From Lentimicrobiaceae bacterium (lineage in GTDB: Bacteria; Bacteroidota; Bacteroidia; Bacteroidales; UBA4417): 64,000 bases of DNA. The stretch covers positions 2,035 through 66,034 of the forward strand of contig JBAZWY010000022.1 of the NCBI GenBank assembly GCA_041660125.1. The letters run 5' to 3'. Every line of letters begins with the position of its first letter. Position 1 is the stretch's first letter. The notes below the pieces were generated by a model, which saw only the letters and a list, made by a program, of their open reading frames with translations, searched no databases and had not been told where the DNA came from. The position numbers were made by a program, and so were the translations under genes. Shown in pieces: positions 39,091 to 58,921 of this stretch.

Positions 39091-39999
39091 TTAGTTACCT
39101 TTTTCTTTTTCCGATTTTTCTTTTTGCAGCTGCATGGTCAAAGCCGTTACTCCACTGAGTCCACCTAATTCCATTGTTTCTAACGCCGAACTGGGAACAA
39201 CTACAATAGTCGAATTCTGTTTCAGTCCTTCGTAGAGCATATTCGTTGCCCTCAGGTGAAGAGTGGTTGGATTGTCGGCATAGGTTCGGGCTCCATCCCC
39301 GAATTTCTCAGCTACCTGCCGTTCCGAATCTCCGAGTATAACACGAGCCTGCCGCTCTCTTTCAGCTTGTGCCTGCATCGACATGGCATCTTCCAAAGCC
39401 GGCGGAATCAGTGCATCCTTAACCTCCACCGAAATAACATTGATACCCCATGGCTCTGTACGCTCATCAATAATTCTTTGAAGTTCGGAACTGATTTTTT
39501 CCCTGCCTTCGAGTATATCCGAAAGCATGGTCTTACCGATTACATCCCTGAGCGCTGCTTGCGAAGCCCAGCTTATGGCACTTTAATAATCGGCAACATC
39601 CAGAGAAGCCTTTTTCTGGTCAAGCACTTTCCAGAACAGCACCGCGTCCACATCCACTAGAACAGTATCTTTGGTAAGGGTTTTTTCGGTTTTGAAAGTT
39701 GTAGTGATTACATGGGTATCAATCCAGTAAGGGATAGCATCGATTACTGGAATAATAAAAAACAGCCCGGGTCCCCGGATGGCACGAAAATTACCCAGGC
39801 ACAGTACTACCGCTTTCTCCCATTGATCCGCAATTTTAATTGCGGATGAAACAATGATAGTGATAATAAAAGTAACGATGATCATACCCATAGTTCCGGC
39901 GGTATCTGCCTGTCCGTTATAGGAAGAATAAGCTATTCCGCAGCCGATAGCAACGATAATTACAAAGATCAGCGAAGCGAAAGCATTAAAACGTCTCAT
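39091..39999 (-). pseudogene. SPFH/band-7 (stomatin/prohibitin-like) family gene interrupted by a single in-frame TAA
   Basis: ORFs 39583-39999 and 39091-39528 are in the same frame. Reading through gives ...ASLDVADY*SAISWASQAALRDVIGKTMLSDILEGREKIS..., a continuous SPFH domain. The TAA lies at 39583-39585. Confidence 0.8.
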
Positions 40000-41488: not shown

Positions 41489-41530
41489 AAAAAAGAGGTA
41501 ACCGTTTCTGCAATAAACGGTTAACCTCTT
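41489..41530 (-). terminator. Rho-independent terminator closing the ARH-PUL operon
   Basis: The minus strand reads GAGGTTAACCGTTT-loop-AAACGGTTACCTC followed by a T6 run. It lies 85 nt downstream of the FISUMP gene stop. Confidence 0.7.
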
Positions 41531-41614
41531 CTTAATCAACCACTAATATTCTTCTAAATAAGCTTATCTTCAAATCTTTTAAATTCAAAAAACAAGCCTT
41601 GCTCTAGATGTCTA

Positions 41615-43558
41615 TTAATATGTGTAATCCCATTCTTCTGTTGAACTATCTACTGCATTTGTCTTCACTATCTTTGTTATCCTGTTGTTGGCATCTCTGG
41701 TATACACAAAGGTTGCAGTTTTCTTAACAATGGGAGTTGCGGTTGGATCCCAGTACGTATATGAATCGATCAGTTTTGCGCTTGGCCTACCATACAAATT
41801 ACCATAGGGTCTCCAATCCGAATCGGATATATTTGACTGAAAAATGCCTTCTGCATTATTATCAGCCAGGTATGTAAACACCTTTATCTGAGTTGTATCA
41901 CCTGAATCACTATATTTAACAATTTTACTGACATTTCCATCAGTGATAAAAACTTCTCGCTTTTTAGTGTTTGTACCAGAAAAAAATTCATTATATGAAA
42001 TACCAAAACCATCCGCATTGTATTCGTAGCCAAAATAATCACCTCCGCCCTGGTCGTCTTTTGTAATGTAGCCTGATGCATTCAGATCATATGAAGCATA
42101 TACAGAATTGTCATCTTTTGTGAGGGTCAGTTTATTGGGTACCGAATAATCGTAAGTCAGGGTTTTATCCACAGATCCTGCCCATAGGTCAACCATTTGT
42201 GCTACTTTACCTGATATATCATAAGTAAAATCCCACTCTTCTATATCAGTTTGCCAGGTAGCATGAAAAGCAATTGATTTTATGGTATGATCATCCAGAA
42301 TACAACGAAGCGAGAAACCATTCCGTTTACTAGTGCTGTATGTCATATCAAGAATAGGAGATTCACCAGTCAGGAACGCACACGTGCCTTTGGTAGCATC
42401 AGTAGCGAGCTCTGTAGCTGTCCATAAGTAATTGTAATTATAATCGTTAAATACACCACTGCTATTACACTTAGCACCTGCTCTTGCGGAGAACCCAGTT
42501 TCATTGGTAGCGTCAGCATTAGTCTCTGGTGCCCAATTGACAACCCCTGTTTCTCTTAATTTATTACCAGCTTCATCTACCCCCAAAAATTCTGATAATG
42601 TGCCGTATTCTTCAATGGTTGGTACATGCCAGCCAGCGGGACATATATTACGGACATCATTTACGGCAAACCAGTTGTATAATTTACCAAATCTTGCGGC
42701 ATTGTCAGTATTGTTGTCTAAATCGCACCATGCACCCGTAGTTAAAAGTATCCATGCCTCAGGAGTGGTTACATTGTCAATGGAAGCACCTGAACTGTAT
42801 TTGGTAGTTCTCAGGCATTCAGCCATCCATATTTGACCGCCAATTTTTACAGTTGCATAGTAATTGCCGGAAGCATCTTTGCATTCAATAAAATTGAAAT
42901 TAACTGTCTTGCTATCGGTTGGTACATCGGTAACGATAGTGGCGTAATTCCCGGATATTCCTTTATACAACATGATATCACCAGGTGTATAAGCCAAAGA
43001 GACAGAAGCTTCAGCACTTTTAAGCGGACTTACGATATTCTTTTCCTGAACACCAACAAAAGAAATTTCAGGGTGGCTATTGTTGCTGGAAACACTAATC
43101 ATTTTGCCAGATAAAGCATATCCAGCCCCCTGCACGCCAATCACATAAGCACCTGTTCGCAATGAAACCTGAAATGAATTTGTTCCTTTTTGTAGATTTT
43201 GCGAAAGTGAGGCAATCTTTCTACCATCCATACTGTATACGCTGATACGTGCATTTCCAGCCTGTTTAGCATAAAATGAAACAGTTGAAGTTCCTGCAGT
43301 GGAGTTAGAGGTAATTTGTATCCCGTCATTGTATGCAGATAATGGTTTAAGAGCTGTAGTTACATTTAAAACTAGTACATCTCCACTCGGCACTGTAGTT
43401 GATATGCCTTGGGTAACGTTTTGGGCTTCAACACTTTCAACAGTTGCACTTTCCCCGCTTCCTGTAAAAGAAATGGTGTAAACCTGTGCAAATGTTTGTA
43501 ATGTTCCAAAGAACATTAAGACTGCGGCAAATAATGCCCATGAGTAATTTTTTTTCAT
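41615..43558 (-). CDS. Secreted multidomain protein with a Fibrobacter succinogenes major paralogous (FISUMP) domain
   Basis: 647 aa with a signal peptide. The central FISUMP pattern is present (ATVKIGGQIWMAECL...GKLYNWFAV...CPAGWHVPT...GFSARAGA...YLWTATE...FSLRCI). An N-terminal beta-sandwich resembles a T9SS sorting domain. The C-terminus has YD-like repeats. Confidence 0.75.
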   Translation of the reverse strand: MKKNYSWALFAAVLMFFGTLQTFAQVYTISFTGSGESATVESVEAQNVTQGISTTVPSGDVLVLNVTTALKPLSAYNDGIQITSNSTAGTSTVSFYAKQAGNARISVYSMDGRKIASLSQNLQKGTNSFQVSLRTGAYVIGVQGAGYALSGKMISVSSNNSHPEISFVGVQEKNIVSPLKSAEASVSLAYTPGDIMLYKGISGNYATIVTDVPTDSKTVNFNFIECKDASGNYYATVKIGGQIWMAECLRTTKYSSGASIDNVTTPEAWILLTTGAWCDLDNNTDNAARFGKLYNWFAVNDVRNICPAGWHVPTIEEYGTLSEFLGVDEAGNKLRETGVVNWAPETNADATNETGFSARAGAKCNSSGVFNDYNYNYLWTATELATDATKGTCAFLTGESPILDMTYSTSKRNGFSLRCILDDHTIKSIAFHATWQTDIEEWDFTYDISGKVAQMVDLWAGSVDKTLTYDYSVPNKLTLTKDDNSVYASYDLNASGYITKDDQGGGDYFGYEYNADGFGISYNEFFSGTNTKKREVFITDGNVSKIVKYSDSGDTTQIKVFTYLADNNAEGIFQSNISDSDWRPYGNLYGRPSAKLIDSYTYWDPTATPIVKKTATFVYTRDANNRITKIVKTNAVDSSTEEWDYTY

Positions 43559-43614
43559 GATTTTTTTTTTAGGTTAAACATTAATTAATTGGGGGGTTAG
43601 AAATAATTCGTTAG

Positions 43615-44628
43615 TTAATTTCCGGCCAGAATAATCAGCGCCAGACCAGCTGTAAAAAGTAAAAACATAAACGCAAGCAAGGTATTAACTGATTTATTGG
43701 CGCCTTTAAATTCTTTCCAGATAAAGACACCCCAGAAAGCACCAATCATGGTAGCACCTTGTCCAAGTCCGAACGAAATGGCATACCCGGCTTTATTTGC
43801 TGCCAAAAGGCTTAACGAGGTTCCGAGCGCCCAAATCATTCCACCGATAATTCCTGACAAATGGCTTCGGAAATTACCTTCGAAATATTGTCTGAAATTA
43901 ACCGGAATGCCTTCGATAGGATTTTTCATCAGGTATGTATTGAACAGAAAATTGCTTATAACGATACCAATTACAAAAAAGAAAAATGCGGCGTAAGGAG
44001 TCAGTTTTCCGGCTTCGGATAATCCGGCTGCCGTAGCTTCGGGATCAGTAGCAATTGCACTTGCAACAAAGCGGAAGAACCAGGCCATAAGAAATCCTGC
44101 TGATATTGAAAGGAGGATTCCTTTTGTGGATGCCTTTTTTTCGCTGACAGCATGTTTTTTATAGGCCAATGCATCAAGAATTATTGCCACTACAACAATT
44201 CCAACGCCAATAAACAGGAGTAAAGGGTCTCCTTTAGGCGTAGCTATATAATTGATAAGTACACCCAGTACCATAGCAATTCCAACTCCAACCGGGAATG
44301 CAATAGACATACCTGCAACAGAGATGGCAGCAACCAACAGAATATTGGAAAGATTAAAGATGATACCGCCTAAAATGGGATTGAGAATACTCGAAGTGCT
44401 TGCCTGTTTGATACTCTCAACAAAGCCCATTCCAATATTGCCGATACTGCCGAAAGTGAAACCGAAAAGCAGGGAAAACAGTAAAATCCCGATCACATAA
44501 TCCCAATAGAAAAGCTCGAAACGCCAGCTTTTGGCGGCCATTTTCTGTGTGTTCGCCCACGATCCCCAGCAAAGCATGGTAACAAAAGTGAGAACAACTG
44601 CCAGCGTGTAACTACCTACGATAAACAT
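43615..44628 (-). CDS. GRP/DMT-superfamily sugar permease (ribose/glucose-uptake-type candidate)
   Basis: 337 aa with about 10 transmembrane helices. The N-terminal CWGSWANTQK resembles the GlcU/RbsU FWGS motif. It shares an operon with a ribokinase. Confidence 0.55.
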   Translation of the reverse strand: MFIVGSYTLAVVLTFVTMLCWGSWANTQKMAAKSWRFELFYWDYVIGILLFSLLFGFTFGSIGNIGMGFVESIKQASTSSILNPILGGIIFNLSNILLVAAISVAGMSIAFPVGVGIAMVLGVLINYIATPKGDPLLLFIGVGIVVVAIILDALAYKKHAVSEKKASTKGILLSISAGFLMAWFFRFVASAIATDPEATAAGLSEAGKLTPYAAFFFFVIGIVISNFLFNTYLMKNPIEGIPVNFRQYFEGNFRSHLSGIIGGMIWALGTSLSLLAANKAGYAISFGLGQGATMIGAFWGVFIWKEFKGANKSVNTLLAFMFLLFTAGLALIILAGN

Positions 44629-44660
44629 GGTTTTTAGTTTTAGTTAGTAAAAAGTTATTG

Positions 44661-46220
44661 TTATTTGTGAAATCTTTGTTCTGCAAATGCAATTATTTCC
44701 GGCAACCCTGCCATGAAAAAATCAAACCCGCCTTTGCCTTCCCTCACCCTGTATTCGTGTTGTAAATCTTTGTCACGCAAAAGCATATGAGCATTCCCGT
44801 TGCCTTCGTAAAAACCACCTTTATCAGGTGCGTCGATAAAAAACGAAGTACGTTCGAGGGCTTTAGGTTTCATATCTGATAGTAAACCAGAGAAAAGGTC
44901 TTTTGAAATGAAAGCGTCGCTAATAATACACGAAACAAATTGCTCCTGAAAAGCCGTTTTGCATATATCGGATGCTTCAGCCTGATATCCTGCTATAGCA
45001 CGAAACCGATAGCCTTTGCGTATTCTTAATTTTTCTTCGAATTCAGGCATTAAGGCTGTTAATTGCTTTACAGAATTCTCAGATAAAAACACAATCAATA
45101 TAGGACTCATAAGGTTCTTTTCAATCTCCTGATTCACCTTTTCCGCAATTGTCTTACATTGAGCTTCCGAAAAATTTCCTGCTAAATAAATAACAGGGTA
45201 AAATCGGCTGGTATATTCATATTCAGCAGGCACAAAGGCATAAACTTGCTCATTACCGGCCGTTAGAGTTAGTAATTGTTTTTCAGGCAACATGTTGGAG
45301 ACACTTTTAGTTGTTATATCTCCCCGATACAGTTTACCATCGAATGCATCACTGATAAAACGGAGTGCATTTGGCAATGCCGAACACCAGTACTGGAAAC
45401 TGTGACCTCCATCACGGACCCGGAATTCATGAGGAATATTCAGGTTGCGCATTAGTATATGTAATTCCTCGTTACTCCGGCAAAGTGTTTGTTCTTTGTC
45501 GCCATTATCAATATAAATATTCAGTTTCTTAATATCAGCAGATGGCATTTGAGATAAAATGTAATAAGGGCTATTCTGTTTGTAATACTCAGTGATTCTA
45601 TTTTTGCCTTTAAATTCCGGCTCACCAAATAACCGGCCCCATTGATCATCCCAGCCGGAAGCATCTTCAGTCATATATTGTTCATCGGTACGGACTGAAA
45701 TACTCAAAGGAACCGTAGTGCCAAATACATCCAAATGTTTCAGGTGCAGATTCAGGGCACCAAATCCTCCCATGGAATAGCCCATCAGGGCGCGATGCTG
45801 CCTATCGGCTTTAGTTCGGAAAAGGCTGTCAATGTATGGCACCAGCTCGTTTACAAACATATCCTGATAAAGGAATGACCGTTTATAATCATTCACATAA
45901 TAAGTGCGAAATGCTTCGGGCATCACGAAAATCATGGATTGGATTTCCCCGTCTGCAACGGCCTTGTCAGCATATTGGCTGATTTGACCATATTCCAGCC
46001 ACGAGGCTTCATTATCACCAAGCCCGTGTAATAAATAAACAACAGGAAAGGATTGCTTTGTATCATAATAATTTGCCGGCAGACAAACCGAGAAATGGAC
46101 ATCCTGGTTTAATATCTTACTAGACATCACCATGCTTTCCATAATCCGCAAGCCTGAAGCTGCAACCGTATTGCAAATCAGTATTATGCCAAAGAAAAAC
46201 AGTAAAGAAGTTCGTTTCAT
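44661..46220 (-). CDS. Secreted esterase (esterase-D/CE1-like alpha/beta hydrolase) fused to a degenerate second esterase-like domain
   Basis: 519 aa. The N-terminal domain has YLLHGLGD, the nucleophile elbow GYSMGG, and Asp/His candidates (DNGDKE, DGGHSF). The C-terminal copy reads AGYQAE and GKGGFDF, so both Ser and His are lost. Confidence 0.8.
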   Translation of the reverse strand: MKRTSLLFFFGIILICNTVAASGLRIMESMVMSSKILNQDVHFSVCLPANYYDTKQSFPVVYLLHGLGDNEASWLEYGQISQYADKAVADGEIQSMIFVMPEAFRTYYVNDYKRSFLYQDMFVNELVPYIDSLFRTKADRQHRALMGYSMGGFGALNLHLKHLDVFGTTVPLSISVRTDEQYMTEDASGWDDQWGRLFGEPEFKGKNRITEYYKQNSPYYILSQMPSADIKKLNIYIDNGDKEQTLCRSNEELHILMRNLNIPHEFRVRDGGHSFQYWCSALPNALRFISDAFDGKLYRGDITTKSVSNMLPEKQLLTLTAGNEQVYAFVPAEYEYTSRFYPVIYLAGNFSEAQCKTIAEKVNQEIEKNLMSPILIVFLSENSVKQLTALMPEFEEKLRIRKGYRFRAIAGYQAEASDICKTAFQEQFVSCIISDAFISKDLFSGLLSDMKPKALERTSFFIDAPDKGGFYEGNGNAHMLLRDKDLQHEYRVREGKGGFDFFMAGLPEIIAFAEQRFHK

Positions 46221-46223
46221 TTT

Positions 46224-47834
46224 TTAGTTGTTGAGATGGTCATTGATATATGCAGCCGACTCATATATTCCGTTTAGGAAGGATTCGAATAAAGGTGTTC
46301 CCTGCCGAACCCTGTATTCGTGGTCAAGCTGGTTTTTTCTTAAATTCATATACAGCGAATGATAGACGTTGTAATTGCGCCCTTCATCAGTTATATCAAG
46401 GTAATAACTTAGTGCAGGATTATCAGCATTGGCATTCACAGGAAGATCTGCATCAAAAAGAAGGCACGCATTGATTTGCTCTGAACATGCAGTAACCAAT
46501 TGGTAAGCCAATAATCCAGCCTGTTTATTTCCTAACAGCAAGGTATGATTGCGGTCTGCAATTGCACGATATTTCGTGCGAACCTGGGAAATAATCTGTT
46601 GAAGAATAGCGGCAGTAACAGTTTTTGTTTGCAGGGGGATTTCAACAATTAATGAAGCCGGTATTTTGCTTTCGCCAATCATAGAATTAAACAGTGACTT
46701 TATTTTTTGTGATTCTTCTTCCTGAGTATTGATATTCCGGTCGTGAAGAATAATGATGACCGGATAATTTTTTGCATCTGATAAATAGGTTGGCGGCACA
46801 GTTACGCTATATTCGATATTGGTTCCTTCGGCTTGCTCCGCAAAAATACGTTCAGCCGGAACAGTTGCTCCTGGGTTAACAGGCGCCGGATCTGCCGGAT
46901 AAGGGATATTTTGAACGGCAAAACTGATAAACCTAAGTGCCTCGGGCAATGCACCATGCCAGTAATCCCAGTTGTGAGCGCCATTCCGCACACGATATTC
47001 GTGTTTTATGTTCAGGTTGCGGAGCATGTCGTGAAGTGAATCGTTGGGTTGCGATAGGTTTTCTTCATCATCGCCGCAATCAATAAAGTAATTCTGGCCT
47101 TGTAAGGAAATGTCGTTCGGATTTGTAAAGAAATAGAAAGGATTATTCTCCTTATAATAGTCAGTTAAACGAGCAGCGCCTTTGGAACCTACACCACCAA
47201 AAATGGAACCCCATTGAATATCCCAGTTCGACTGAGGTTCATTCATATATTGCTGATCGGTGCGATAGGACATACTTAATACAACGCCGGTTTTAAATAC
47301 TGAAGGATTTTTTGCCGTTGTAATAAGAGCTCCGTAACCACCCATCGAATAACCCATTACAGCCCTGTGCTGGGGATCCTTAATTGTGTGATACAACAAA
47401 TCTATTTGTGGAATCATTTCTTTTACAAGCATATTCATATATGGGAAAGCGCCATCGTATTGATCGACCCAATAGGAATTAAAACCCTGTGGCATCACAT
47501 AAATCATGGGGATTTTCCCGGCATCATCTGCATCAACATAATTTTGGATATCGCCCCATGTATACCACGCAGTCTCATCATCACCGAAGCCATGTAGCAG
47601 GTATACAACAGGGTACTTCGAATTCAGTGTGTCATATTCTTTCGGTAACAGAACCGTGTATTTAATCTGGCGGTTGAGGAGCTGGCTTTTCAATGTTCGT
47701 TCAGTCAATAAGCGTATTAAGGGCGGCTTGTGAGGAGCAGTAGGATCCGGTTCCGGCTTACAACCAGACAACCCCATTAAAAGGGAAAGGGAGCCGAGAA
47801 TCGCGAGTAAGCTGATGATGAAAGCTTTATGCAT
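46224..47834 (-). CDS. Lipoprotein esterase (esterase-D/CE1-like) fused to a degenerate second esterase-like domain; paralog of the preceding gene
   Basis: 536 aa with lipobox LSGC. The N-terminal domain has YLLHGFGD, GYSMGG and NGAHNW. The C-terminal copy has LGNKQAG and QGTPLF in place of the Ser and His motifs. Confidence 0.8.
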   Translation of the reverse strand: MHKAFIISLLAILGSLSLLMGLSGCKPEPDPTAPHKPPLIRLLTERTLKSQLLNRQIKYTVLLPKEYDTLNSKYPVVYLLHGFGDDETAWYTWGDIQNYVDADDAGKIPMIYVMPQGFNSYWVDQYDGAFPYMNMLVKEMIPQIDLLYHTIKDPQHRAVMGYSMGGYGALITTAKNPSVFKTGVVLSMSYRTDQQYMNEPQSNWDIQWGSIFGGVGSKGAARLTDYYKENNPFYFFTNPNDISLQGQNYFIDCGDDEENLSQPNDSLHDMLRNLNIKHEYRVRNGAHNWDYWHGALPEALRFISFAVQNIPYPADPAPVNPGATVPAERIFAEQAEGTNIEYSVTVPPTYLSDAKNYPVIIILHDRNINTQEEESQKIKSLFNSMIGESKIPASLIVEIPLQTKTVTAAILQQIISQVRTKYRAIADRNHTLLLGNKQAGLLAYQLVTACSEQINACLLFDADLPVNANADNPALSYYLDITDEGRNYNVYHSLYMNLRKNQLDHEYRVRQGTPLFESFLNGIYESAAYINDHLNN

Positions 47835-47843
47835 TCTGTTTGG

Positions 47844-49436
47844 TTATTTTTTGTCAGGATTAAGTATTTCCAGGGGTTTATCAGCGTAAACCACATAGGA
47901 TTTCTCAGTTATCCGGAAAACCGGGTTCTGATTTACCCATTTAATTTCAAGTTTATGATCACCATTTTCCAACATGTATTTATAAAAGATGTCGTATTTG
48001 CGGACGATGTAATCATACGGCATCTTAACCTGCTCAACTTTTGCACCGTCGATATATACATCCAGCAAAGCAACGAAATCACTCTTCTCAACACCACACT
48101 GGCTCTTAACATTCCCCAAAACGACTATGCCATTCCCGGTAAAGTCAATCTTAATACTTTCGTCCAGGTGATCCTTCCTCACTAAAAGCTGCTTGGTTGG
48201 ATACATTCCTTCAAAGGATTGCTCAAACCTCAATGGTTCGGGTTTTTGAATTTTAAGTATAACGCTGTCATTTTTAACCTCACCCCCATTTTTTTCAATT
48301 TGCTCAATCGCATGTTTATAACTCAGTGCATACACCTGGTTCAGCGTGAGGTTAGAATAGGGGAATTTCATATCCTGCACCTTCTCAACAGCCGGTTTCC
48401 AGAAAGCAGGAATTTTATCATACCCCAGGATAACACCCAGGATACCACCCGCAGTTGCCGGGTTACAATCCGAATCCTCTCCGCAGCGTGTTGCAATATC
48501 AATGGTTTTATAGAAATCCTTATTGCCATACAAAAGCCCTATCACCACATAAGCAGCATTAACGCTGGCGTCGATATTGAATGAATTAAAAACTCCTTCG
48601 GGGCAACCTTTTTCGGAAGTATGTTTCTTTTGAAATTCAAACCAGCATTGTTTCCAGTCGTCCGGATACTGCTTGTGCCATTTAATTACATCGCTGATAG
48701 ACTGATAAAACTTACTCTTTTCAGGAATTGGTTTTAATCCCTGTTCGATAATCAAATCCAGATCATCAGAATAGAAGGCTGTTGCATACATGCCGGCCAT
48801 AAAAACGCCACCATACCAACCGTCGCCGTAATTTGTAATATGACCGGTGCGGTCGCATATTTCGGCAGCTGTATTGATCAAACCTGGCGACATCATCCCG
48901 GCAAAGTCTGATTCGATCTGGAAGTCAATATCATCGGCATGGGGATTATTCATCCAATAGCCGGAAGCGGGAGGCTTGATTCCGTTCAAAATATTGTAGC
49001 GGGCCGCCTGGTTGGCATGCCATAATTTATAAGGAGCGTGAGCAAAGCTTTCTGCAAATGAATCAGCTGGCGCATCAAACCCGCATCTTTCTATAACTTC
49101 AATAAAAGACAAATCCATATACACATCGTCAAATAAACCCGGATCCGACTCAAATAATTCTCTGATATAATCGTCGTACCAAACTATAGGTTGATAATCC
49201 TGTATCATGGATCCTTTAAACTGGAATTCAGTAGGACCGCCATACGTGCAGCCGATTGTTTGTCCAGCCCAGCCACCTTTTATCTTGTCTTTCAGCGCAT
49301 CTGCTGATATTGCGACCTTCTCGGGCAGTATTGTTGTCTGCATATTACTGCTACTACATGATGGTTGAAGTAGTAAGGCCGATAGAATAAGCAGCACGGC
49401 AGATATCAGAATCAGAAAAGGTATTCCTTTTTTCAT
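47844..49436 (-). CDS. Exported ADP-ribosylglycohydrolase (ARH/DraG)-fold protein with a C-terminal beta-sandwich domain (lipoprotein)
   Basis: 530 aa with lipobox QPSC. ARH-like motifs are present: GGWAGQTIGCTYGGPTEF, FDDVYMD and CGEDSDCNPATAGGILGVILGY. Confidence 0.75.
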   Translation of the reverse strand: MKKGIPFLILISAVLLILSALLLQPSCSSSNMQTTILPEKVAISADALKDKIKGGWAGQTIGCTYGGPTEFQFKGSMIQDYQPIVWYDDYIRELFESDPGLFDDVYMDLSFIEVIERCGFDAPADSFAESFAHAPYKLWHANQAARYNILNGIKPPASGYWMNNPHADDIDFQIESDFAGMMSPGLINTAAEICDRTGHITNYGDGWYGGVFMAGMYATAFYSDDLDLIIEQGLKPIPEKSKFYQSISDVIKWHKQYPDDWKQCWFEFQKKHTSEKGCPEGVFNSFNIDASVNAAYVVIGLLYGNKDFYKTIDIATRCGEDSDCNPATAGGILGVILGYDKIPAFWKPAVEKVQDMKFPYSNLTLNQVYALSYKHAIEQIEKNGGEVKNDSVILKIQKPEPLRFEQSFEGMYPTKQLLVRKDHLDESIKIDFTGNGIVVLGNVKSQCGVEKSDFVALLDVYIDGAKVEQVKMPYDYIVRKYDIFYKYMLENGDHKLEIKWVNQNPVFRITEKSYVVYADKPLEILNPDKK

Positions 49437-49444
49437 TGTGGTGT

Positions 49445-51085: not shown

Positions 51086-51099
51086 GGTCTTGGTTTGAT

Positions 51100-53091
51100 T
51101 TAATGATAAACACTGAGTTCCGTTATTGAAGTAAATCCGGAAACCTGTTTGGTATATTTATTCCAGTGGTCCTGGATTTTTGCATCGCCGATAATGCGAA
51201 TTGCCTTGGTTTCGACAGGATCAAAGCTGATAACGTATTCGGCAAAGTGGGGTTGAAAAAACACAATGTCAGTCTCGGGCAAAGGTGGCGTAATTGAAGT
51301 ATTTTCAACCGGTGTCCATTTTCCGGCATCATTCAGATATTGCACGTTGAGTGAGGTAAACCATCCCCCGAATTCTTCGAGACAACCGGTATGCAAGGCC
51401 ATCATACTTATTTTTTGAGGAGTCTTCCAGCCATAGCCGTAATAATCCACTTTTGGGATTTTAGCTTTGGCAGCCAGGCTGTAAAATACAGAGCCAGGAC
51501 CGTCGATTTTACCGTCGTTTATAACTTCCACGTTCTTAGCATACATTGACTTCCCAAAAGTGTACCAGCACGAATCAAGGACTTTTTCGTTAAGCTGACG
51601 AACATTTGCCAGAATAGTATCGGCTGTCGGGGCAAAATTAGTGCCACGAACTAACAGATTGAAATCATGGGTGATTTTTTCTTTCCCGTTATCAAGCTGA
51701 AGTGTAATTTTAGAATAGCCCGAAGTTGTTGGAATACCTGTAAGCTTTCCTTTTGTAAACGTAAGACCTACTGGTAATTTACCTGCAATCATGCTCCAGT
51801 TGTAAATTTTGTTAGCCTCGGTATAGAAATTATAATCAATCGGTTTGCCAATTTCCATAATTGGCAAAGGGCCGATGCAAAATTCGACAGGAGGATTAAA
51901 AACTGCTTCGGTATTGATTGTGAGCACCTGGTTGCCTGGCTTACCAGAAAGTTTGCCACCCTTTGAAACAACCAGGTCAATAGCGGCTTTCAATGTCTGA
52001 TCAATCATCTCCGATATTTTACCATCAGGCAAATCGTATCTTGTAATGTTAATATATTTGTCGTTGAAGGGCATTTTCCACCCATCGACCGGCAAATACA
52101 GATTTTCAGGTAAGCCTTTCATCCCATAAATAACACCCATCAATCCTGCAACTGTTGCAGCCTGGTTGTCGGCATCAAAACCCATTGCACAGGAAAGGTC
52201 AAGTGTATGCTGGAAATCTCCACCGCCATATAGCATTGCCAAAACAGCACATGCACCATTCAGATTAGCATTCCAGATGGTTTTGGTCATATCAGGCTCA
52301 TCGATATAATATTTCTGAGCCATATCTTTCCTTGCAGCTTTCCAGTCATTCGGATATTTTGCATGCAAGGCAATCATTTCCCTGGCTGTAGCTGTAAACC
52401 GGCCATTGGCAGGCAATGCCTTTATTCCGATTTCAATCAGCTTATAGATGTCTTTTTCGAAATAAGCTGCGGAATACATAGCTCCGTAAAAGATTGTTGG
52501 TTCAACGCCCCAATCGTCACTGGTAATACGGGCAGCCCAATCAGATTTTGAAGCTGCATAGTTAATCATACCCGGAGCTGTAACCCCCCATATTTCGTTG
52601 ATAAGCTGAGGGTCAATCTGGAACCAGTGAGGATTCAAGGCTTTACTTCCTGTAAAAGGCGGGGTATAACCGAAATGCATCAGTCCCAAGGCGCCGCGGT
52701 TTGCAAGCCAAACCCTGTCGCGGATATGATACATCCAGGCTTCGCGGAGTTGTCCGTACGAAGGTTCAACACCAAATTTCATCATCTGGAGCAGATACAT
52801 ATATTCAACATCCGTATCGTCATCGGAAAAAGCGCCATCGTACTTTTTAAGCTTATCGATGTTTTTCGTATAACCATATGGCCAGTTTTCAGGACCGGGA
52901 GCATTGATATATTTGCCTTCATGCGGCAATCCGTAAATATTGCCAATCATCTGGCCTATCCACTCAGCAGCAATCTTGTCACGTAGTTCGCGAACTGTTA
53001 TCTTGTTTGGTTTGCTTCCATTCGAAATGAACGGAAGTAAAAACATTACAAAAACAAGATACCACACTATAAATATTTTCTTTATTTTCAT
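51100..53091 (-). CDS. Exported ADP-ribosylglycohydrolase-fold protein with C-terminal Ig-like and discoidin/F5-8-type-C-like domains
   Basis: 663 aa with a signal peptide. Motifs EWIGQMIGNIYGLPHEG, FSDDDTD and GFDADNQAATVAGLMGVIYG are present. These are followed by GKLPVGLTFTKGKLTGIPTTSG (putative Ig) and a C-terminal carbohydrate-binding-like module. Confidence 0.7.
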   Translation of the reverse strand: MKIKKIFIVWYLVFVMFLLPFISNGSKPNKITVRELRDKIAAEWIGQMIGNIYGLPHEGKYINAPGPENWPYGYTKNIDKLKKYDGAFSDDDTDVEYMYLLQMMKFGVEPSYGQLREAWMYHIRDRVWLANRGALGLMHFGYTPPFTGSKALNPHWFQIDPQLINEIWGVTAPGMINYAASKSDWAARITSDDWGVEPTIFYGAMYSAAYFEKDIYKLIEIGIKALPANGRFTATAREMIALHAKYPNDWKAARKDMAQKYYIDEPDMTKTIWNANLNGACAVLAMLYGGGDFQHTLDLSCAMGFDADNQAATVAGLMGVIYGMKGLPENLYLPVDGWKMPFNDKYINITRYDLPDGKISEMIDQTLKAAIDLVVSKGGKLSGKPGNQVLTINTEAVFNPPVEFCIGPLPIMEIGKPIDYNFYTEANKIYNWSMIAGKLPVGLTFTKGKLTGIPTTSGYSKITLQLDNGKEKITHDFNLLVRGTNFAPTADTILANVRQLNEKVLDSCWYTFGKSMYAKNVEVINDGKIDGPGSVFYSLAAKAKIPKVDYYGYGWKTPQKISMMALHTGCLEEFGGWFTSLNVQYLNDAGKWTPVENTSITPPLPETDIVFFQPHFAEYVISFDPVETKAIRIIGDAKIQDHWNKYTKQVSGFTSITELSVYH

Positions 53092-54603
53092 TTAGTTTTG
53101 CATTGGAGGGTTCTGTTGAAGAGAAGGATTTGCATTAAGTACATCCTGGGGAATAGGGAATAATTTTGCATTTGGGCCTCTTACCGGTTTATTCCACCCT
53201 GCATTACCCCAAACGCCAAAACGGATCATATCCTGCCTTCTGTGGCCTTCGAATACGAACTCGCGACCAAGTTCGTCGAGTAATCCGGTATCGGTCAAAT
53301 CCGATGCTTCCAGAGGTGCCAGCCCGGCGCGGGTCCGTATTTTCTGAAGATCGGCATTACCCAGCATTTCAGCCCCACGTCCCAGGCGGTATAAGGCTTC
53401 GAGCTTCGTGTAAAGTACATCGGCATAGCGGAACAATACAAAATCGTTATCCATATCGTATTTATCATAATCCAATACGTTTAACGCGTATTCGTATTTC
53501 CCAATGCGGGCGCCTTCCCATTTTTTACGGCTACTATAATTGATGATAGTGTCGGTGTAAATAAAGTTTGGAATGATTTTACCGGTTAAATCTTTTTGCT
53601 GTCCCCTGATAAATGATTTTTTTCGCTGGTCGTTATCGGCAAACTTATGTAAATATGGCGGCTCAGTAACAAACTCATCCCAAAACGAATTCCCGGTCAT
53701 CCCATAGGTAGCGGCACTGGAAGAGTTGAGTGTAAGCGCAAAAAAGTAAAAAAGTTGCGGAGTTAAAATAGGATCATATGGGATTACGAAAATATTCTCT
53801 TGCGAAGATTCATTTTTTATTTTGAAATTTGTAAAATAATTGTTTTCTATTTTATAACTATTAAGCGCTATCACTTTATCGCAGGCATCCACTGATTTTT
53901 GAAAGTTATCCACACCAATCCATTCCTGGGAATTGAGGTATAATTTTGCCAGTAAGGTATAAGCCATTCCCTGGGTAACACGGCCATAATATGCCGGAGT
54001 TGGAAGTTTTTGTAGTATATCAACATTAGCGAGAATCTCTTTCTCCACAAAATCAAATACAAATTTCCTGTCCTTTTGCGGAGGCAGTTCTTTACTGGTG
54101 AAATCGGTCACAAAAGGTATATTCCCCCAATTATCCATTGCCCAATAATATTCGTACGCACGTAAAATCTTGATTTCGGCAATTATCCGTTCTTTTTCAG
54201 GAAACGTAATAGATGTTTGTTCGGTTTCGTAGAGTACTTCGTTGCAGCCTGCAATGCCCTGGAAAACAGAATTCCATGCCCAGAGATTGATTTTATTGGT
54301 AGATAGGACCATATGCTGTTGTATTTGATCCCAGCGCCCGCCATCCCACACGGAGCCATCATACTTCTTAGGAGCAGCTAATTCGTCGCTCGACAATTCG
54401 TCAAGCGTCCACAGGCTGAATTCCTCCGGATAATGCTGAAGTTTGGTGTAAGCCCGCGCCGCATTCTGTAGTACAGCTTGTTCATTCACAAAGAATTGGT
54501 CGATGGTGATTTTAGAATATACTGTTTCGTCGAGCTTTGTGCATGCAACCATGCTTAACACCAGGGTTAAACATATGGCCTGTATATAGTTGAACTTTTT
54601 CAT
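53092..54603 (-). CDS. SusD/RagB-family outer-membrane lipoprotein
   Basis: 503 aa with lipobox MVACTK. It is TPR-like and helical with typical SusD C-terminal conservation (FEGHRRQDMIRFG, PIPQ). Its stop abuts the next gene's start with no gap. Confidence 0.85.
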   Translation of the reverse strand: MKKFNYIQAICLTLVLSMVACTKLDETVYSKITIDQFFVNEQAVLQNAARAYTKLQHYPEEFSLWTLDELSSDELAAPKKYDGSVWDGGRWDQIQQHMVLSTNKINLWAWNSVFQGIAGCNEVLYETEQTSITFPEKERIIAEIKILRAYEYYWAMDNWGNIPFVTDFTSKELPPQKDRKFVFDFVEKEILANVDILQKLPTPAYYGRVTQGMAYTLLAKLYLNSQEWIGVDNFQKSVDACDKVIALNSYKIENNYFTNFKIKNESSQENIFVIPYDPILTPQLFYFFALTLNSSSAATYGMTGNSFWDEFVTEPPYLHKFADNDQRKKSFIRGQQKDLTGKIIPNFIYTDTIINYSSRKKWEGARIGKYEYALNVLDYDKYDMDNDFVLFRYADVLYTKLEALYRLGRGAEMLGNADLQKIRTRAGLAPLEASDLTDTGLLDELGREFVFEGHRRQDMIRFGVWGNAGWNKPVRGPNAKLFPIPQDVLNANPSLQQNPPMQN

Positions 54604-54621
54604 GGTTTACTTCTGTTTTAA

Positions 54622-57597
54622 TTAAAAAATAACGTTTACACCTAAAGTTACTGAAGTAGAGCGTGGATAATAACTCAATGGCTCCATCCCGGGAGCTAAC
54701 CCGCTTAAACCCACTTCCGGGTCAAGGCCTTTATAGCCGGTTATGGTAAATACATTCTGGGCAGTAATGTTAACCCTGATTTTTGAAATATATTTCAAAC
54801 TGAAAGGGATGTTATATCCGAGCGATATATTATCGAGCTTAAGATAGGTTGCTTTTTCAATATATTTCGACGAATATTGTGCTTTACCAGTGAATTCAGG
54901 GTTATCGAGTTGTGTGTGTACTATATTCTTACCGAGTACCACCCAATTCTCGTAATATAGCCGGTAGGTATTCAATACTTCGCCTCCTATCTGGGCCCTT
55001 AACGAAAAGTTTAAATCCCAGTCTTTATAGGTAAGCATATTACTCCATCCCAGGATACAAAACGGCATCGCATTGCCGATCGGACCGATGAATGCTTCAT
55101 TATAAAAAGTTGTTGTATCACTTTTATTTGTTTTTGCAATTGCTGTGTCATTTTTAAAAATATCATTACCCTTTGAATCAATTCCCAACCAGTCAGGCCC
55201 ATAGAATGTACCGATTGGTTCTCCTTCATAAAGACGCTCAACTTTTATAGGAAAATCGTTGTAAAGCTGGCCGGTTTCGATATATGGAGCTTTAAATTCA
55301 GCATTGGTAAATGAGATAAGCTTATTGTTATTTTTACTAAAAGTTACAGTAGTTGTCCAGTTAAAAGATTTCTGTTGAACAGCTATCGCATTTACTGAGA
55401 TTTCAACCCCATGATTTCCGATTACACCAACATTGGTAAACAATGATGGGTAAATATATGGCGGAACATTTACCGGATAGGTATAAAGCAGATCGGTGCT
55501 TTTGCGATAGTAATAGTCAAAAACGCCACTCACACGGTTATTCAGGATTGAAAAATCGACACCGGCATTAAGCTCCTGCTTCTTTTCCCAGCGGAGATCC
55601 GGGTTCGGGTTCGAAGTTGGTGCATAACTATTTATCCACTGCCCGTTGTATAAGAATTTCCCGGCTGATGCCATCATAATCAGTGACTGATAGTTAGCGA
55701 ATTCCTGGTTCCCAGTAGTACCGTACCCAACGCGGAGTTTAAGGTCGTTGATCCAGGAAACGTTGTTCATAAAATTCTCCTTATTCATCCGCCAGCCAAG
55801 ACTAGCCGCAGGGAACCAGCCCCATTTATTGTTTGCACCGAAGCGCGATGATCCTTCCTTGCGGAGCGAAACAGCAAGCAAGTATCGCTCGCTGTAATTG
55901 TACATAAGGCGACCAAAAAACGAGATGAGGGTACTGCTCTCTCTATAAGAGCCCATATATGCCTGACCAATACCCAAAGCTGAACCTGCCCCGATATTAT
56001 TCGGACCGTAAAGATCAGTATCGAATTTGCTGTTAACCATATATGATGAATTCGCATCCTGTGTCTGATAGGAGTAGCCGGCAAGAGCCTGGAGAGTATG
56101 TTTTTCAATTGTTTTAGTATAATTCAGGGTACTTTCGTATTGCAGGGAACTGTTTTTTCCGTTATCAATTTCGGCTTCACCAAATTGGCCCAGAATACTT
56201 GGGTAATACTTGGTTTTGTATGAGAGCATTTCATCATCCGTTTGGTCAATCGAAAGGAAATTGACCCATTTCAATGAATTAGCCAGTTTTAATGTAGCGC
56301 GGACATTAGCAGTACCTTCAATAGTCTTTCCGTTGACAGTCCGCTCATTAAGCATAGCAACCGGATTGTAATACGCATTCCCCGGCAACACTGTATAACC
56401 ACCTGAATTTATATTAGCAGAGTCATAAACAGGACTCGTCGGGTTACGGATAAATGCCTGGTAAAAAATATCATAATTGGCAGGTTTGTATTTACGCATA
56501 CCATAACTCAGGTTATAGTCGAGCAATAGAATGCCGCCAAAAGCTTTTTGCATAATATTAGTACGAACAAGGTATTTATTTGATTCATTGTTTTTAAGCA
56601 AACCATCCGACTTCTCAATATAAATATTTGTCCGGTGCGAAAAGTTTTCATTACCCCCGCTGATGGCTAAGTTATGTTTCTGGCTAAACGGGTTTGTATT
56701 AGTTATCTCTTTAAACCAATCCGTACTAGCGTTTAATATATTGACGGTATCGCCGTACTGTCTGATTGCTGTGCGGAATTCGTCGGCTGACAGGTTTTTA
56801 ACACTGCGTGGAGCTACTTGAAACGAAAACTGCCCGGTGTATTCAATTTTAGACTCGCCTGCCTTAGCACGTTTGGTGGTGATGATTATTACACCATTTG
56901 AACCACGTGTACCATAAATAGCTGCAGCTGCACCGTCTTTTAATACATCCATGGATTCAATTTCTTCAGGGCTTATATTCTTCATATCAGCACCGGCTAC
57001 CCCATCAATAATGATCAGGGGACCCTGCCCGGAAGTAAGTGTACCGGTACCACGGAGGATGATATTGGGATTTGCCATCGGATCGGAGCCGTTGGGATTC
57101 ACAATTGTTAATCCGGCTACTTTTCCCTGCAAAAGTCCCATCGGATTGGTATAAGCGCCCTTGTTAAACTGGTCAGATTTAACACTGGCAATTGCACCTG
57201 TGACTTCTTTTTTAGTGGTTGTCCCATACCCGATCACAACTACTCCCTCTATCGCCTGCGATATAATTTTGAGATGGGCATCAATGTTTTGTTGAGTGCC
57301 CACTTCTACTTCAAGCTTTTCATATCCAATGAATGAAAAAATGAGAGTTGCACCTAAGGGAACATCTAAGGAATATTTCCCGTTAATGTCAGTAACAGTT
57401 CCGGTTTGTGTACCTTTAATGGTAATACTGGCACCCGGAATAAGTTCATTGTTGTTAGCATCTGAAACGGTTCCTGAGACTTTGATTGCAGTTACTTCCT
57501 GGGCAATTGTATAACTTGTAGTAAATACAAACAGGAATGCAAGTGTAAGGCCAAATAAGCCGGATCTTAGTTTTACGTACCTCATGATTGTTTTCAT
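54622..57597 (-). CDS. SusC-family TonB-dependent receptor (no STN signalling domain)
   Basis: The ORF spans 54622-57696. The likely start is MKTIMRYVKLRSG at 57597. The signal peptide runs directly into a CarboxypepD_reg-like domain (VSGTVSDANNNELIPGASITIKGTQTGTVTDINGKYS), then a plug and barrel, ending in F. Confidence 0.9.
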   Translation of the reverse strand: MKTIMRYVKLRSGLFGLTLAFLFVFTTSYTIAQEVTAIKVSGTVSDANNNELIPGASITIKGTQTGTVTDINGKYSLDVPLGATLIFSFIGYEKLEVEVGTQQNIDAHLKIISQAIEGVVVIGYGTTTKKEVTGAIASVKSDQFNKGAYTNPMGLLQGKVAGLTIVNPNGSDPMANPNIILRGTGTLTSGQGPLIIIDGVAGADMKNISPEEIESMDVLKDGAAAAIYGTRGSNGVIIITTKRAKAGESKIEYTGQFSFQVAPRSVKNLSADEFRTAIRQYGDTVNILNASTDWFKEITNTNPFSQKHNLAISGGNENFSHRTNIYIEKSDGLLKNNESNKYLVRTNIMQKAFGGILLLDYNLSYGMRKYKPANYDIFYQAFIRNPTSPVYDSANINSGGYTVLPGNAYYNPVAMLNERTVNGKTIEGTANVRATLKLANSLKWVNFLSIDQTDDEMLSYKTKYYPSILGQFGEAEIDNGKNSSLQYESTLNYTKTIEKHTLQALAGYSYQTQDANSSYMVNSKFDTDLYGPNNIGAGSALGIGQAYMGSYRESSTLISFFGRLMYNYSERYLLAVSLRKEGSSRFGANNKWGWFPAASLGWRMNKENFMNNVSWINDLKLRVGYGTTGNQEFANYQSLIMMASAGKFLYNGQWINSYAPTSNPNPDLRWEKKQELNAGVDFSILNNRVSGVFDYYYRKSTDLLYTYPVNVPPYIYPSLFTNVGVIGNHGVEISVNAIAVQQKSFNWTTTVTFSKNNNKLISFTNAEFKAPYIETGQLYNDFPIKVERLYEGEPIGTFYGPDWLGIDSKGNDIFKNDTAIAKTNKSDTTTFYNEAFIGPIGNAMPFCILGWSNMLTYKDWDLNFSLRAQIGGEVLNTYRLYYENWVVLGKNIVHTQLDNPEFTGKAQYSSKYIEKATYLKLDNISLGYNIPFSLKYISKIRVNITAQNVFTITGYKGLDPEVGLSGLAPGMEPLSYYPRSTSVTLGVNVIF

Positions 57598-57598
57598 A

Positions 57599-58531
57599 TT
57601 AAGTTGTTGGTTGTTGTATTGTGAGTGATGATAATTCGGACCGGTATGGAATTGATGTTTGTGCACCCATACGTGTAACCGTGATTGCTGCAGCACGGGC
57701 AGCCAATTTTACGGAATCCAGAATTGATTTTCCTTCCGAAAGCCCGACACAAAAAGAACCACAAAAAGTATCTCCTGCCGCTGTTGTATCAAGCGCCTCA
57801 ACTTTAAAGGCTTCTACAAAATTATAATCTGAATATTCTTTAATTAATGCTCCCTGTGAACCAAGAGTGATAACAACAATATCAACACCTTTTGCGCTGA
57901 TGATGTCAGCAGCTTGTTTGGCAGATTCAATATCAGTTACTTTTATTCCGGAAAGGATTTCTGCTTCACTTTTATTAGGTATTATAATGTAGATATGTTT
58001 TAAAAGGTCATTGGACAGTGTCCTTGCCGGAGCAGGGTTTAAAATAACTTTGATGCCTTTTTTATTTGCCATTTCAGCAACATACTCAACGGTTTCGATA
58101 GGTATCTCAAGCTGCATTAAAACCAGGTCGCAGTTTTCAATTTCAGTACTCGCTTTGTCAATATCCACGGGATTAAGATAGGCGTTGGCACCTGAAGCAA
58201 CCACAATGCAGTTTTCTCCCAAAGAGTCAACAGTAATAAGGGCAACTCCAGAAGGATGCTTGGGATCCGATACGATAAAATCCGTTTTAATATTCTCAGC
58301 AGCATATAACATGACTGATTGCTTGCCAAAAACATCATTCCCTGTTTTGGAAATTAAAGTAACGTTTCCGCCCATGCGTGATGCAGCAACAGCCTGGTTT
58401 GCGCCTTTACCACCTGGGTTCATAAAAAAAGTACCACCTAAAATGGTTTCACCAGGCACGGGAAGCCTATCCGCTTTTATTACCATATCTGTATTACAAC
58501 TTCCAACAACAACGATTTTTTTTGATTGCAT
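57599..58531 (-). CDS. rbsK: Ribokinase (PfkB family)
   Basis: 310 aa. Motifs VVVGSCNTDM, PGGKGANQAVA and DTTAAGDTF (anion hole/catalytic Asp) are present. Confidence 0.88.
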   Translation of the reverse strand: MQSKKIVVVGSCNTDMVIKADRLPVPGETILGGTFFMNPGGKGANQAVAASRMGGNVTLISKTGNDVFGKQSVMLYAAENIKTDFIVSDPKHPSGVALITVDSLGENCIVVASGANAYLNPVDIDKASTEIENCDLVLMQLEIPIETVEYVAEMANKKGIKVILNPAPARTLSNDLLKHIYIIIPNKSEAEILSGIKVTDIESAKQAADIISAKGVDIVVITLGSQGALIKEYSDYNFVEAFKVEALDTTAAGDTFCGSFCVGLSEGKSILDSVKLAARAAAITVTRMGAQTSIPYRSELSSLTIQQPTT

Positions 58532-58553
58532 ATCCTTTCGATTTTATAAGCAA

Positions 58554-58561
58554 CAAAGATA
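58554..58561 (-). promoter_or_regulatory. Candidate Bacteroidota -7 promoter box TATCTTTG for the ribokinase-led operon
   Basis: It matches TAnnTTTG on the minus strand, 23 nt upstream of the ribokinase ATG, within a 390-bp AT-rich spacer. Confidence 0.35.
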
Positions 58562-58921
58562 TATCATGATAAACATGAAAAGTATCAATAATTTATACAA
58601 ATCGGTAATTATAAAATACACGTATTTATAAAATAAATTGTTTATAATATTGAATAACAGGTTATTAAATTATATTTTAATATGACAGATCATACATTAT
58701 GCTGTAATTTTAAACTAATAATGATGAATATTTTTATTCAATCTGTATATTTACAGCTTCTTAGCAGCTGTTTAAGTTTTATTACAAACCAAAGAAAGTT
58801 CATGAAGTATACTTTTCAGGGAGTAGAGGTCATTCTAATCCATTTCCCACGGAGGCTAACAGCACTTTCTTACCTTTTGTAATAAGCTAATTTCAAAAAC
58901 AATTAAAATCAATATTCCTCC

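Follow-up and report, generated by a model that had tools for sequence, protein, structure and literature searches.

The closest described relatives of the system treated here are the ribose-utilisation (rus) loci, of which Glowacki et al. (bioRxiv 10.1101/574913) distinguish 70 configurations, with variable enzymes that include ADP-ribosylglycohydrolases (ARHs) and carbohydrate esterases, and with at least 22 glycoside hydrolase (GH) families, GH76 among them. All eight rus-like systems tested by these authors showed 100-1000-fold induction by ribose, and in Bacteroides thetaiotaomicron the 513-aa RusR (BT2802) is a candidate regulator required for activation (bioRxiv 10.1101/574913). In this work we analyse a locus of the same kind in a 64-kb window (i.e., the whole stretch of DNA analysed) of a Lentimicrobiaceae bacterium, contig JBAZWY010000022.1, where ten minus-strand open reading frames (ORFs) at positions 41615-58531 include three genes for ARH-fold proteins predicted to be exported. 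We interpret it as a rus-type ribose-scavenging polysaccharide utilisation locus (PUL), in which these proteins would liberate ribose from an acylated ribofuranosyl substrate. We hold this to be the probable reading, with real room left for the alternatives weighed below.

An earlier note on this DNA, made from its letters alone, had presented the locus as a mere relative of the rus system. The link itself stands, as the window has a ribokinase, a SusC/SusD pair and a RusT-like permease and is collinear with a catalogued rus type; the novelty, however, was overstated, since the locus is, judging by its sequence, an orthologue of the already drawn and tabulated rus Type 8 and not a new system. 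Table S5 of Glowacki et al. (bioRxiv 10.1101/574913) lists for the Type 8 locus of B. ovatus ATCC 8483 a LacI-family regulator (BACOVA_02049), a ribokinase (BACOVA_02050), a "Putative Ig domain" protein 25% identical to the ADP-ribosylglycohydrolase query (BACOVA_02053), two ADP-ribosylglycohydrolases of 535 and 527 aa (BACOVA_02054 and 02055) and a permease 67% identical to B. thetaiotaomicron RusT (BACOVA_02058); BACOVA_02051, 02052, 02056 and 02057 are unlisted there, the primer table naming 02051 as the rusC homologue. Quantitative PCR (qPCR) primers cover the entire B. xylanisolvens XB1A locus (BXY19510-19610) as well as the rusC homologue of B. ovatus (bioRxiv 10.1101/574913). An exact-match search of metagenome contigs with the BXY19590 forward primer retrieved 59 of them, those with descriptive names being human-gut assemblies, and nine window proteins map on these contigs in the same order (identities in Table 1). 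Since this nine-gene order is the same on the gut primer contigs and in the BACOVA_02049-58 rows, the window would represent an environmental orthologue of Type 8, its permease being linked to BT2809 indirectly, through the gut Type 8 and B. ovatus permease. We found in the literature no later paper characterising these rus enzymes beyond Glowacki et al. What was already known, then, is the locus type, its ADP-ribosylglycohydrolases and the qPCR primers for its genes; new here are the collinearity in about 45 species, the invariant metal residues, the dead esterase domains, the RusR-like gene with its promoter element, and the linkage to citrate genes, of which all but the first two had been overlooked by the earlier sequence-only reading.

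The ten genes are transcribed in the order rbsK-susC-susD-ARH1-ARH2-ARH3-est1-est2-permease-FISUMP, with intergenic gaps of 1, 18, 0, 14, 8, 9, 3, 32 and 56 nt. These gaps take the SusC start as ATG 57597, which is the most likely one; the mechanical ORF extends to GTG 57696 and would overlap rbsK. Gene identities come from Pfam and NCBIfam profile searches of the window proteins, which agree with the ORF listing and with the earlier note on every gene call, and the packed arrangement exceeds chance, because about 45 other species share this gene order, their median gaps being 3-50 nt. The ribokinase also passes the equivalog cut-off for PRK11142 (355 bits), and SusC has CarbopepD_reg_2, Plug and beta-barrel domains and no STN domain. 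The last gene product, probably a surface binding protein, has in its tail a DUF4595 match that is weak and under the Pfam cut-off (26 vs 34.2 bits). As that note had also held, no canonical GH, polysaccharide lyase (PL), nucleoside hydrolase (IU_nuc_hydro) or phosphatase domain is found in the ten proteins by Pfam or NCBIfam, so that the recognised GH or PL catalytic domain, of which a canonical PUL has at least one, is missing from these results.

Table 1. Features of the locus and its flanks in the 64-kb window, in transcription order of the operon; the last column gives identity between window proteins and their counterparts on the gut contigs carrying the BXY19590 primer site.
Feature	Coordinates	Strand	Evidence and remarks	Identity
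RusR-like candidate regulator, 514 aa	58922..60466	+	divergent from operon; no recognised domain	
Promoter-proximal element AATTACCGATTTGTATAAATTATTGA	58585..58610	-	candidate activator site	
-7 box TATCTTTG	58554..58561	-	fits Bacteroidota consensus TAnnTTTG, read from sequence	
Ribokinase (rbsK / rusK)	57599..58531	-	TIGR02152 380 bits (equivalog cut-off 299.65); PfkB E 2e-72	60%
SusC-like TonB-dependent transporter (rusC)	54622..57597	-	TIGR04056 719 bits	51%
SusD-like lipoprotein (rusD)	53092..54603	-	SusD_RagB and SusD-like_3; lipobox ...SMVAC	44%
ARH1, 663 aa: ARH-fold domain, immunoglobulin (Ig)-like module, module like carbohydrate-binding module (CBM) 32 / F5-8 type C	51100..53091	-	PF03747 E 7e-26, 92.1 bits	65%
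ARH2, 546 aa, lipoprotein: ARH-fold domain and C-terminal beta-sandwich	49445..51085	-	PF03747 E 8e-34, 118.1 bits; lipobox ...SVSC	62%
ARH3, 530 aa, lipoprotein: ARH-fold domain and C-terminal beta-sandwich	47844..49436	-	PF03747 E 1e-41, 143.7 bits	57%
est1, 536 aa, lipoprotein: esterase domain like carbohydrate esterase family 1 (CE1) and degenerate second copy	46224..47834	-	PF00756 E 5e-31	37%
est2, 519 aa, secreted or periplasmic: CE1-like esterase domain and degenerate second copy	44661..46220	-	PF00756 E 7e-36	37%
Inner-membrane sugar permease (RusT-like) of the drug/metabolite transporter (DMT) / GRP type, 337 aa	43615..44628	-	Ureide_permease, Sugar_transport and RhaT/GlcU matches	54% (B. 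xylanisolvens-type gut locus)
FISUMP-domain exported protein, last operon gene	41615..43558	-	Fib_succ_major E 5e-37	
Intrinsic terminator	41490..41533	-	18-bp stem then U run, dG -20.6 kcal/mol, z -6.0	
CitMHS-family citrate transporter	40117..41400	-	PF03600 97.5 bits; 91% identical to cluster c3; just beyond terminator	

The three ARH-fold proteins are here called ARH1, ARH2 and ARH3 (the known enzymes of the same names are marked as such). All three lie above the PF03747 gathering cut-off of 26.2 bits. ARH2 and ARH3 are 47% identical over their full length, and each shares about 30% identity with ARH1. The AlphaFold2 model of ARH3, with a predicted local distance difference test score (pLDDT) of 81 and a predicted template modelling score (pTM) of 0.80, consists of a helical core (residues 40-382) and a beta-sandwich (386-518). 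Compared with the PDB by Foldseek, all its top 44 significant matches have the ARH fold (PF03747-type), with template modelling (TM) scores, normalised to the target, of up to 0.71; they are mainly the known ARH3, DraG and ARH1 and a T. thermophilus ARH-like protein, at 11-15% identity. The core of the ARH1 model (pLDDT 71) matches MJ1187 at a TM score, likewise normalised to the target, of 0.70. Modelling in this way lends support to the fold proposed in the earlier note, and so it does, in part weakly, to the C-terminal modules read there as carbohydrate-binding-like: the beta-sandwich of ARH3 has weak Foldseek matches to CBM36, CBM35-like and CE2 N-terminal domains, and the tail of ARH1, where Pfam gives weak He_PIG and F5_F8_type_C matches, resembles the Ig and CBM32 part of the M. 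viridifaciens (Micromonospora) sialidase, a C-terminal module of BgaA and the CBM32 of AlyB.

Single-sequence searches with ARH3 and ARH1 against the PDB gave no match, and a sequence profile aligns to the solved ARHs over the motif regions only. In these, the GxDxD(C/S/N) segment aligns with GGDTDT of human ARH3, a stretch which holds D314, D316 and T317, and the N-terminal DKIxG...GxPxE segment with the Glu motif of MJ1187 and Tri1. Residues E70, D103, D104, D321 and D323 (ARH3 numbering) are invariant in 164 ARH1, ARH2 and ARH3 sequences from the fetched loci; because these are the metal-ligand residues, the two-metal catalytic centre is retained in all three paralogues. The final Thr after Asp-x-Asp has become Cys or Ser in ARH2 and ARH3, and Asn in ARH1.

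All three proteins, as well as both esterases, start with a hydrophobic signal sequence that predicts export, followed by a lipobox Cys in ARH2, ARH3 and est1 and by none in ARH1, in agreement with the export claimed before for the ARH-fold proteins. A signal peptide is present on every ARH3-like homologue inspected, and the lipobox Cys is kept in at least 90% of ARH3 homologues. Other members of this ARH subfamily are fused to further modules, one to GH92 and others to F5/8 type C, PKD, Laminin_G_3, FIVAR, Big_2 or FG-GAP modules. Such large secreted multidomain fusions have the architecture expected of extracellular carbohydrate-active enzymes. The GH92 case (P0369, 1170 aa) is a natural fusion of the subfamily's ARH domain with a complete domain of this alpha-mannosidase family.

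The two esterases have as nearest solved structures to their N-terminal domains the ferulic acid esterases 7XRT and 5VOL (E 1e-31 to 4e-45, the lowest being est2 vs 7XRT). These domains keep an intact GYSMGG (GxSxG) and a conserved catalytic His, from which that of est1 is predicted to be an active CE1-like enzyme. Each esterase ends in 220 residues that form a diverged copy of its N-terminal domain (E 1e-5 to 1e-10), lacking the Ser of GxSxG and the catalytic His in both proteins; the dead second domain is probably a non-catalytic binding or scaffolding module.

Put together, these parts could work as follows. At the surface of the cell, SusD and the FISUMP protein would bind an acylated glycan or glycoconjugate that carries ribose, and SusC would import it. 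The two CE1-like serine esterases would then strip its acyl groups, with their dead second domains perhaps binding, and the three exported ARH-fold proteins would cleave the ribofuranosyl linkages via the two-metal centre and so yield free D-ribose. The RusT-like permease would carry this into the cytoplasm where the ribokinase, by its family assignment, would convert it to ribose-5-phosphate. In known ARH enzymes the metal centre grips the 2- and 3-hydroxyls of ribose, the fold being built round the ribose cis-diol. Acyl groups on ribose hydroxyls would be expected to block such a centre, which would place the esterases before the ARH step. Finally, the divergent RusR-like protein would activate the promoter through the upstream element in response to ribose, a step proposed by analogy, since Glowacki et al. 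showed such a role for RusR in B. thetaiotaomicron.

With ARH3 as query, homologues fall into at least 8000 clusters at 90% identity; where a source is named, the label is almost always Bacteroidota, and the best 120 clusters are 68-89% identical. At the 50% level, 477 clusters have E <= 1e-30. A locus survey with one genome per species returned 80 loci, about 45 of which keep the strict cassette order. Their hosts are labelled Bacteroidales, Prolixibacteraceae, Lentimicrobiaceae, Marinilabiliales, Cyclobacteriaceae, Roseivirgaceae, Saprospiraceae, Chitinophagaceae and Flavitalea, orders including Cytophagales and Chitinophagales; one, Ferruginibacter sp. HRS2-29 (L038), is a cultured isolate. 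The cassette is met with in lake, soil and wastewater Bacteroidota as well as in human gut Bacteroides. Within the cassette, conservation is highest for the ARH proteins and the ribokinase (65-90% identity) and lowest for the esterases (42-87%). The FISUMP gene follows the permease, at a gap of 29-177 nt, in essentially all environmental orthologous loci. ARH3 is the core paralogue, present in simple ribose loci too, and ARH3-like proteins are paired with ribokinase and permease even in loci without SusC/D.

Departures from the cassette deserve mention in their own right. Simple loci without SusC/D (L055-L066, L071 and L079) have an exported ARH3-like protein and an exported IU-type nucleoside hydrolase, usually with a permease and, where the contig reaches, a ribokinase; several of these loci continue with a gene for a response regulator and four or five for PQQ-like beta-propellers. 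In L053, L054, L064 and L077 the ARH3-like gene is accompanied by sulfatases and SusC, with ribokinase and permease in L053 and L077 and two beta-solenoid proteins, one with an isopullulanase-type repeat, in L053, L054 and L077; this combination hints at a different target, a sulfated ribose-bearing glycan. Two loci call for caution: in L019 (CAVPBC010000002.1) susC, susD, ARH1 and ARH2 are each split in two ORFs, possibly by frameshifts or long-read assembly errors, and L036, a typical Bacteroidota cassette in a bin labelled Omnitrophica WOR_2, is probably mis-binned.

The same fold and genes could be read otherwise. Exported ARHs that had kept their canonical activity, on ADP-ribosylated protein, poly(ADP-ribose), O-acyl-ADP-ribose or NAD debris, with periplasmic nucleotidases finishing the work down to ribose, would agree with the best structural matches (the known ARH3, DraG and ARH1) and the kept metal ligands, and O-acetyl-ADP-ribose would give the esterases something to do; B. 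thetaiotaomicron, moreover, uses ADP-ribose in a rus-dependent way, and (poly)ADP-ribose has been listed as a possible source (bioRxiv 10.1101/574913). Yet free ribose would be needed, and a cassette invariant over about 45 species has no pyrophosphatase, phosphodiesterase or phosphatase, its permease and kinase acting on free ribose, which argues for release of free ribose over removal of ADP-ribose. It also speaks for this conclusion that ARH3-like proteins are exported in all cases and invariably accompany ribokinase and permease. In addition, the CBM32-like and beta-sandwich modules and the GH92 fusions point to glycans, identity to real ARHs is 11-15%, and such scarce substrates are ill-suited to a ten-gene system widespread in lakes, soils and guts. 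We find this explanation quite unlikely, and ADP-ribose and poly(ADP-ribose) come out as the weaker among the proposed substrate options. Unlikely as well, though the best placed of the alternatives, is that the ARHs are periplasmic N-ribohydrolases for modified nucleosides, nicotinamide riboside or alpha-ribazole-type compounds, functional analogues of RusNH. Mammalian ARH1 does cleave an N-glycosidic ribose bond, simple loci place one exported ARH3-like protein between ribokinase and permease, often beside an exported IU_nuc_hydro protein, and the unusually high conservation of the ARHs (65-89% across orders) suits a universal small substrate. Porin-diffusible molecules, however, would make three CBM-bearing paralogues, SusC/D, a surface protein and two esterases needless, and the co-occurrence of a true nucleoside hydrolase suggests for the ARH a different, complementary activity. 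The substrate, lastly, could lack ribose altogether, as feruloylated or acetylated furanosyl glycans would, with ribokinase, permease and RusR serving as a ribose-sensing switch only. The closeness of the esterases to Bacteroides ferulic acid esterases would be accounted for, as would the presence in rus loci of GH families, such as GH76, with no obvious link to ribose and the fact that B. thetaiotaomicron grows on ribose and nucleosides without its rus enzymes; but an ARH fold made for cis-diol recognition, linked to ribokinase and permease in all architectures examined, even where esterases are missing, makes this very improbable.

Several observations nevertheless weigh against release of free ribose by the exported ARH-fold proteins. 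Where canonical ARHs have a Thr after Asp-x-Asp, these proteins have Cys, Ser or Asn, and with so low an identity to solved ARHs and a profile alignment confined to motifs, their chemistry could differ from that of ARHs. In the literature we found no enzyme assay of any exported ARH-fold protein and no substrate reported for one, and we know of no ferulic-acid-esterase-like enzyme with a ribose-linked substrate. The conserved neighbourhood of citrate genes is left unexplained by the ribose model. In B. thetaiotaomicron, furthermore, the rus SusC/D and enzymes are dispensable for the phenotypes tested (Glowacki et al., bioRxiv 10.1101/574913), so that ribose sensing could be partly uncoupled from the targets of the enzymes.

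The citrate neighbourhood is a regular feature of the environmental orthologues. Where the gene next to FISUMP is visible, a citrate transporter or citrate lyase gene lies directly 3' of FISUMP in 33 of 38 loci, and citrate genes occur in the fetched flank of 38 of 41 cassette loci, compared with none of 25 variant loci (ARH3-like, no esterases). The genes found after FISUMP are for a DASS-family transporter (24 loci), a CitMHS transporter (9 loci) or a CitD-CitE fusion and then CitF (11-14 loci); in L032, L035 and L044 CitF stands upstream of rbsK instead. Given several arrangements and two transporter families, selection on the linkage can be argued; the cassette may, however, have spread with its neighbours, so that these loci are not independent observations. 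FISUMP and the citrate gene are 123-341 nt apart, so that the citrate genes form a separate transcription unit. The promoter element described below, sought upstream of citrate genes as a sign of a shared regulon, was not found there, and no citrate lyase genes were found elsewhere in the window, where the CitMHS transporter is the only citrate gene present.

It is tempting to speculate that citrate might be a product of the esterases. Taken further, the ARH-fold proteins would be a new GH family of D-ribofuranosidases acting on ribofuranose ester-linked to organic acids including citrate, with the esterases freeing the acid, the adjacent citrate transporter or lyase consuming it, and ribose passing to the ribokinase; we think this extended version distinctly unlikely, and a search of the literature for a ribose-citrate ester or ribofuranosyl citrate compound found none. 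Citrate is also an iron chelator, and the B. thetaiotaomicron rus operon (BT2804-09) is 4.5-6.4-fold down under iron depletion (PMC10434189), a finding which may be relevant to the linkage. An ARH-family gene is likewise present in the iron-induced hmuY locus of Prevotella intermedia (PMC10434189); this gene, adjoining hmuY, proved unrelated to the window locus. Beyond the citrate transporter gene, two adjacent minus-strand ORFs (39091-39528 and 39583-39999) match a single SPFH / Band 7 domain, the first its C-terminal and the second its N-terminal half, which suggests a frameshift, an interruption or a sequencing error.

On the 5' side, where rus loci have a RusR homologue or a LacI-type regulator, the window has a divergent 514-aa ORF without recognised domain, close in length to the 513-aa RusR; from position and length it is probably a RusR homologue. 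It has no Pfam match, and a PDB search with a profile built from its homologues gave no hit; among 707 homologues, the 120 listed are without Pfam domain and all but one without an informative name. We know of no described domain structure for the RusR family. With neither a Pfam nor a PDB relative, a DNA-binding role of the protein is an inference only. In at least 27 related loci, simple rbsK-ARH-permease loci among them, its gene is found upstream of rbsK, always in divergent orientation.

Between the two genes, the -7 box proposed in the earlier note, TATCTTTG, recurs in orthologous loci as TAnaTTTG, about 30 nt ahead of the ATG. Upstream of it, conserved columns emerge from an otherwise unalignable intergenic alignment, with the consensus TTTa.AATTAc, then aaTtaTTGa, then aTA.aTTTg at the -7 box. 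The element so defined (AATTACCGATTTGTATAAATTATTGA in the window, where it occurs once) consists of TTTayAATTAy, about 12 nt, and wATTATTGA, at a fixed distance from the -7 box, its upstream half-site being TTTayAATTAy and its downstream part overlapping the -33 region. It is present at the aligned positions of 18 other loci. In the form of a regular expression it matches 19 of 46 rbsK-upstream regions, starting 75-87 nt before the rbsK ATG in 17 loci, at 44 nt in L033 and at 121 nt in L062 and L063; it goes with the RusR-like gene and is missing from the three LacI-type loci L040-L042. At the other end, the strong terminator that had been predicted has a stability equalled by none of 200 shuffles. 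Other signals were sought with less success. Sites in a sigma-70 promoter scan were no commoner than in shuffled sequence, the model not being applicable to Bacteroidota; terminator-like sites inside the operon region are at chance level only; and no riboswitch or other RNA came out of an Rfam scan of 39000-62000, the sole match being a chance one on the terminator. Control by an extracytoplasmic function (ECF) sigma and anti-sigma pair was rejected, because SusC has no STN domain. The ECF-type sigma factor gene in question (61948-62502) and a redoxin/AhpC-like gene (61106-61714), neither of which seems tied to the locus, lie in a region (58000-64000) where G+C falls beyond the operon from about 0.41 to 0.32-0.35.

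The cassette is among the most conserved PUL cassettes met in this survey. If its ARH-fold proteins are true ribofuranosidases, they would represent a new class of carbohydrate-active enzymes and reveal an unrecognised ribose-containing nutrient pool, for whose substrate the citrate-gene linkage is a new clue in environmental lineages. Orthologues are at hand in tractable strains, namely B. ovatus ATCC 8483, B. xylanisolvens XB1A and Ferruginibacter sp. HRS2-29.

Compared with systems already known, the esterases share GxSxG and the catalytic His of their N-terminal domains with the Bacteroides CE1-type feruloyl esterases (7XRT and 5VOL), from which they differ in the added degenerate copy without Ser and His and in their partners, ARH-fold proteins as opposed to xylanases or arabinofuranosidases. 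The ARH-fold proteins have in common with the ARH/DraG superfamily (human ARH1 and ARH3, Rhodospirillum DraG, Serratia Tri1 and MJ1187) the all-helical fold and its motifs, a Gly-rich one ending in Glu, Asp-Asp and Gly-x-Asp-x-Asp. To our knowledge all characterised members of this superfamily are intracellular, being cytoplasmic or nuclear, whereas the window proteins, with their signal peptides and lipoboxes, are predicted to be exported or lipid-anchored. They also have extra beta-sandwich, Ig and CBM32-like modules, the family-specific invariant residues N142, N164-P165-H166, D171 and N293, and a context of sugar catabolism in place of protein modification. A similar triad, a lead only, is that of E. 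coli yegTUV, with a nucleoside-type transporter, the ARH-family YegU and the PfkB kinase YegV; it is cytoplasmic and is not known to have SusC/D, esterases or CBM-like modules.

Among PULs, the B. thetaiotaomicron prototype (BT2802-BT2809) resembles the window locus in its ribokinase, SusC/D, DMT-type permease and upstream candidate regulator of about 513 aa, and both would follow the same logic, in which ribose sensing, import and phosphorylation are coupled to exported hydrolases. Unlike the window, it has two ribokinases, the DUF4969 'RusGH' and an IU-type nucleoside hydrolase, and neither an ARH-fold protein nor an esterase. Type 8 (BACOVA_02049-02058; BXY19510-19610), in turn, has a gene order identical to that of the window, with ribokinase, SusC, SusD, the Ig-domain ARH, two further ARHs, two esterase-like proteins and the permease. 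Its gut version in Bacteroides departs from the window in the LacI-family regulator that stands in place of the RusR-like 514-aa gene, in a tenth gene for an fn3-domain protein instead of FISUMP, and in having no citrate genes nearby, the next genes there belonging to a different PUL.

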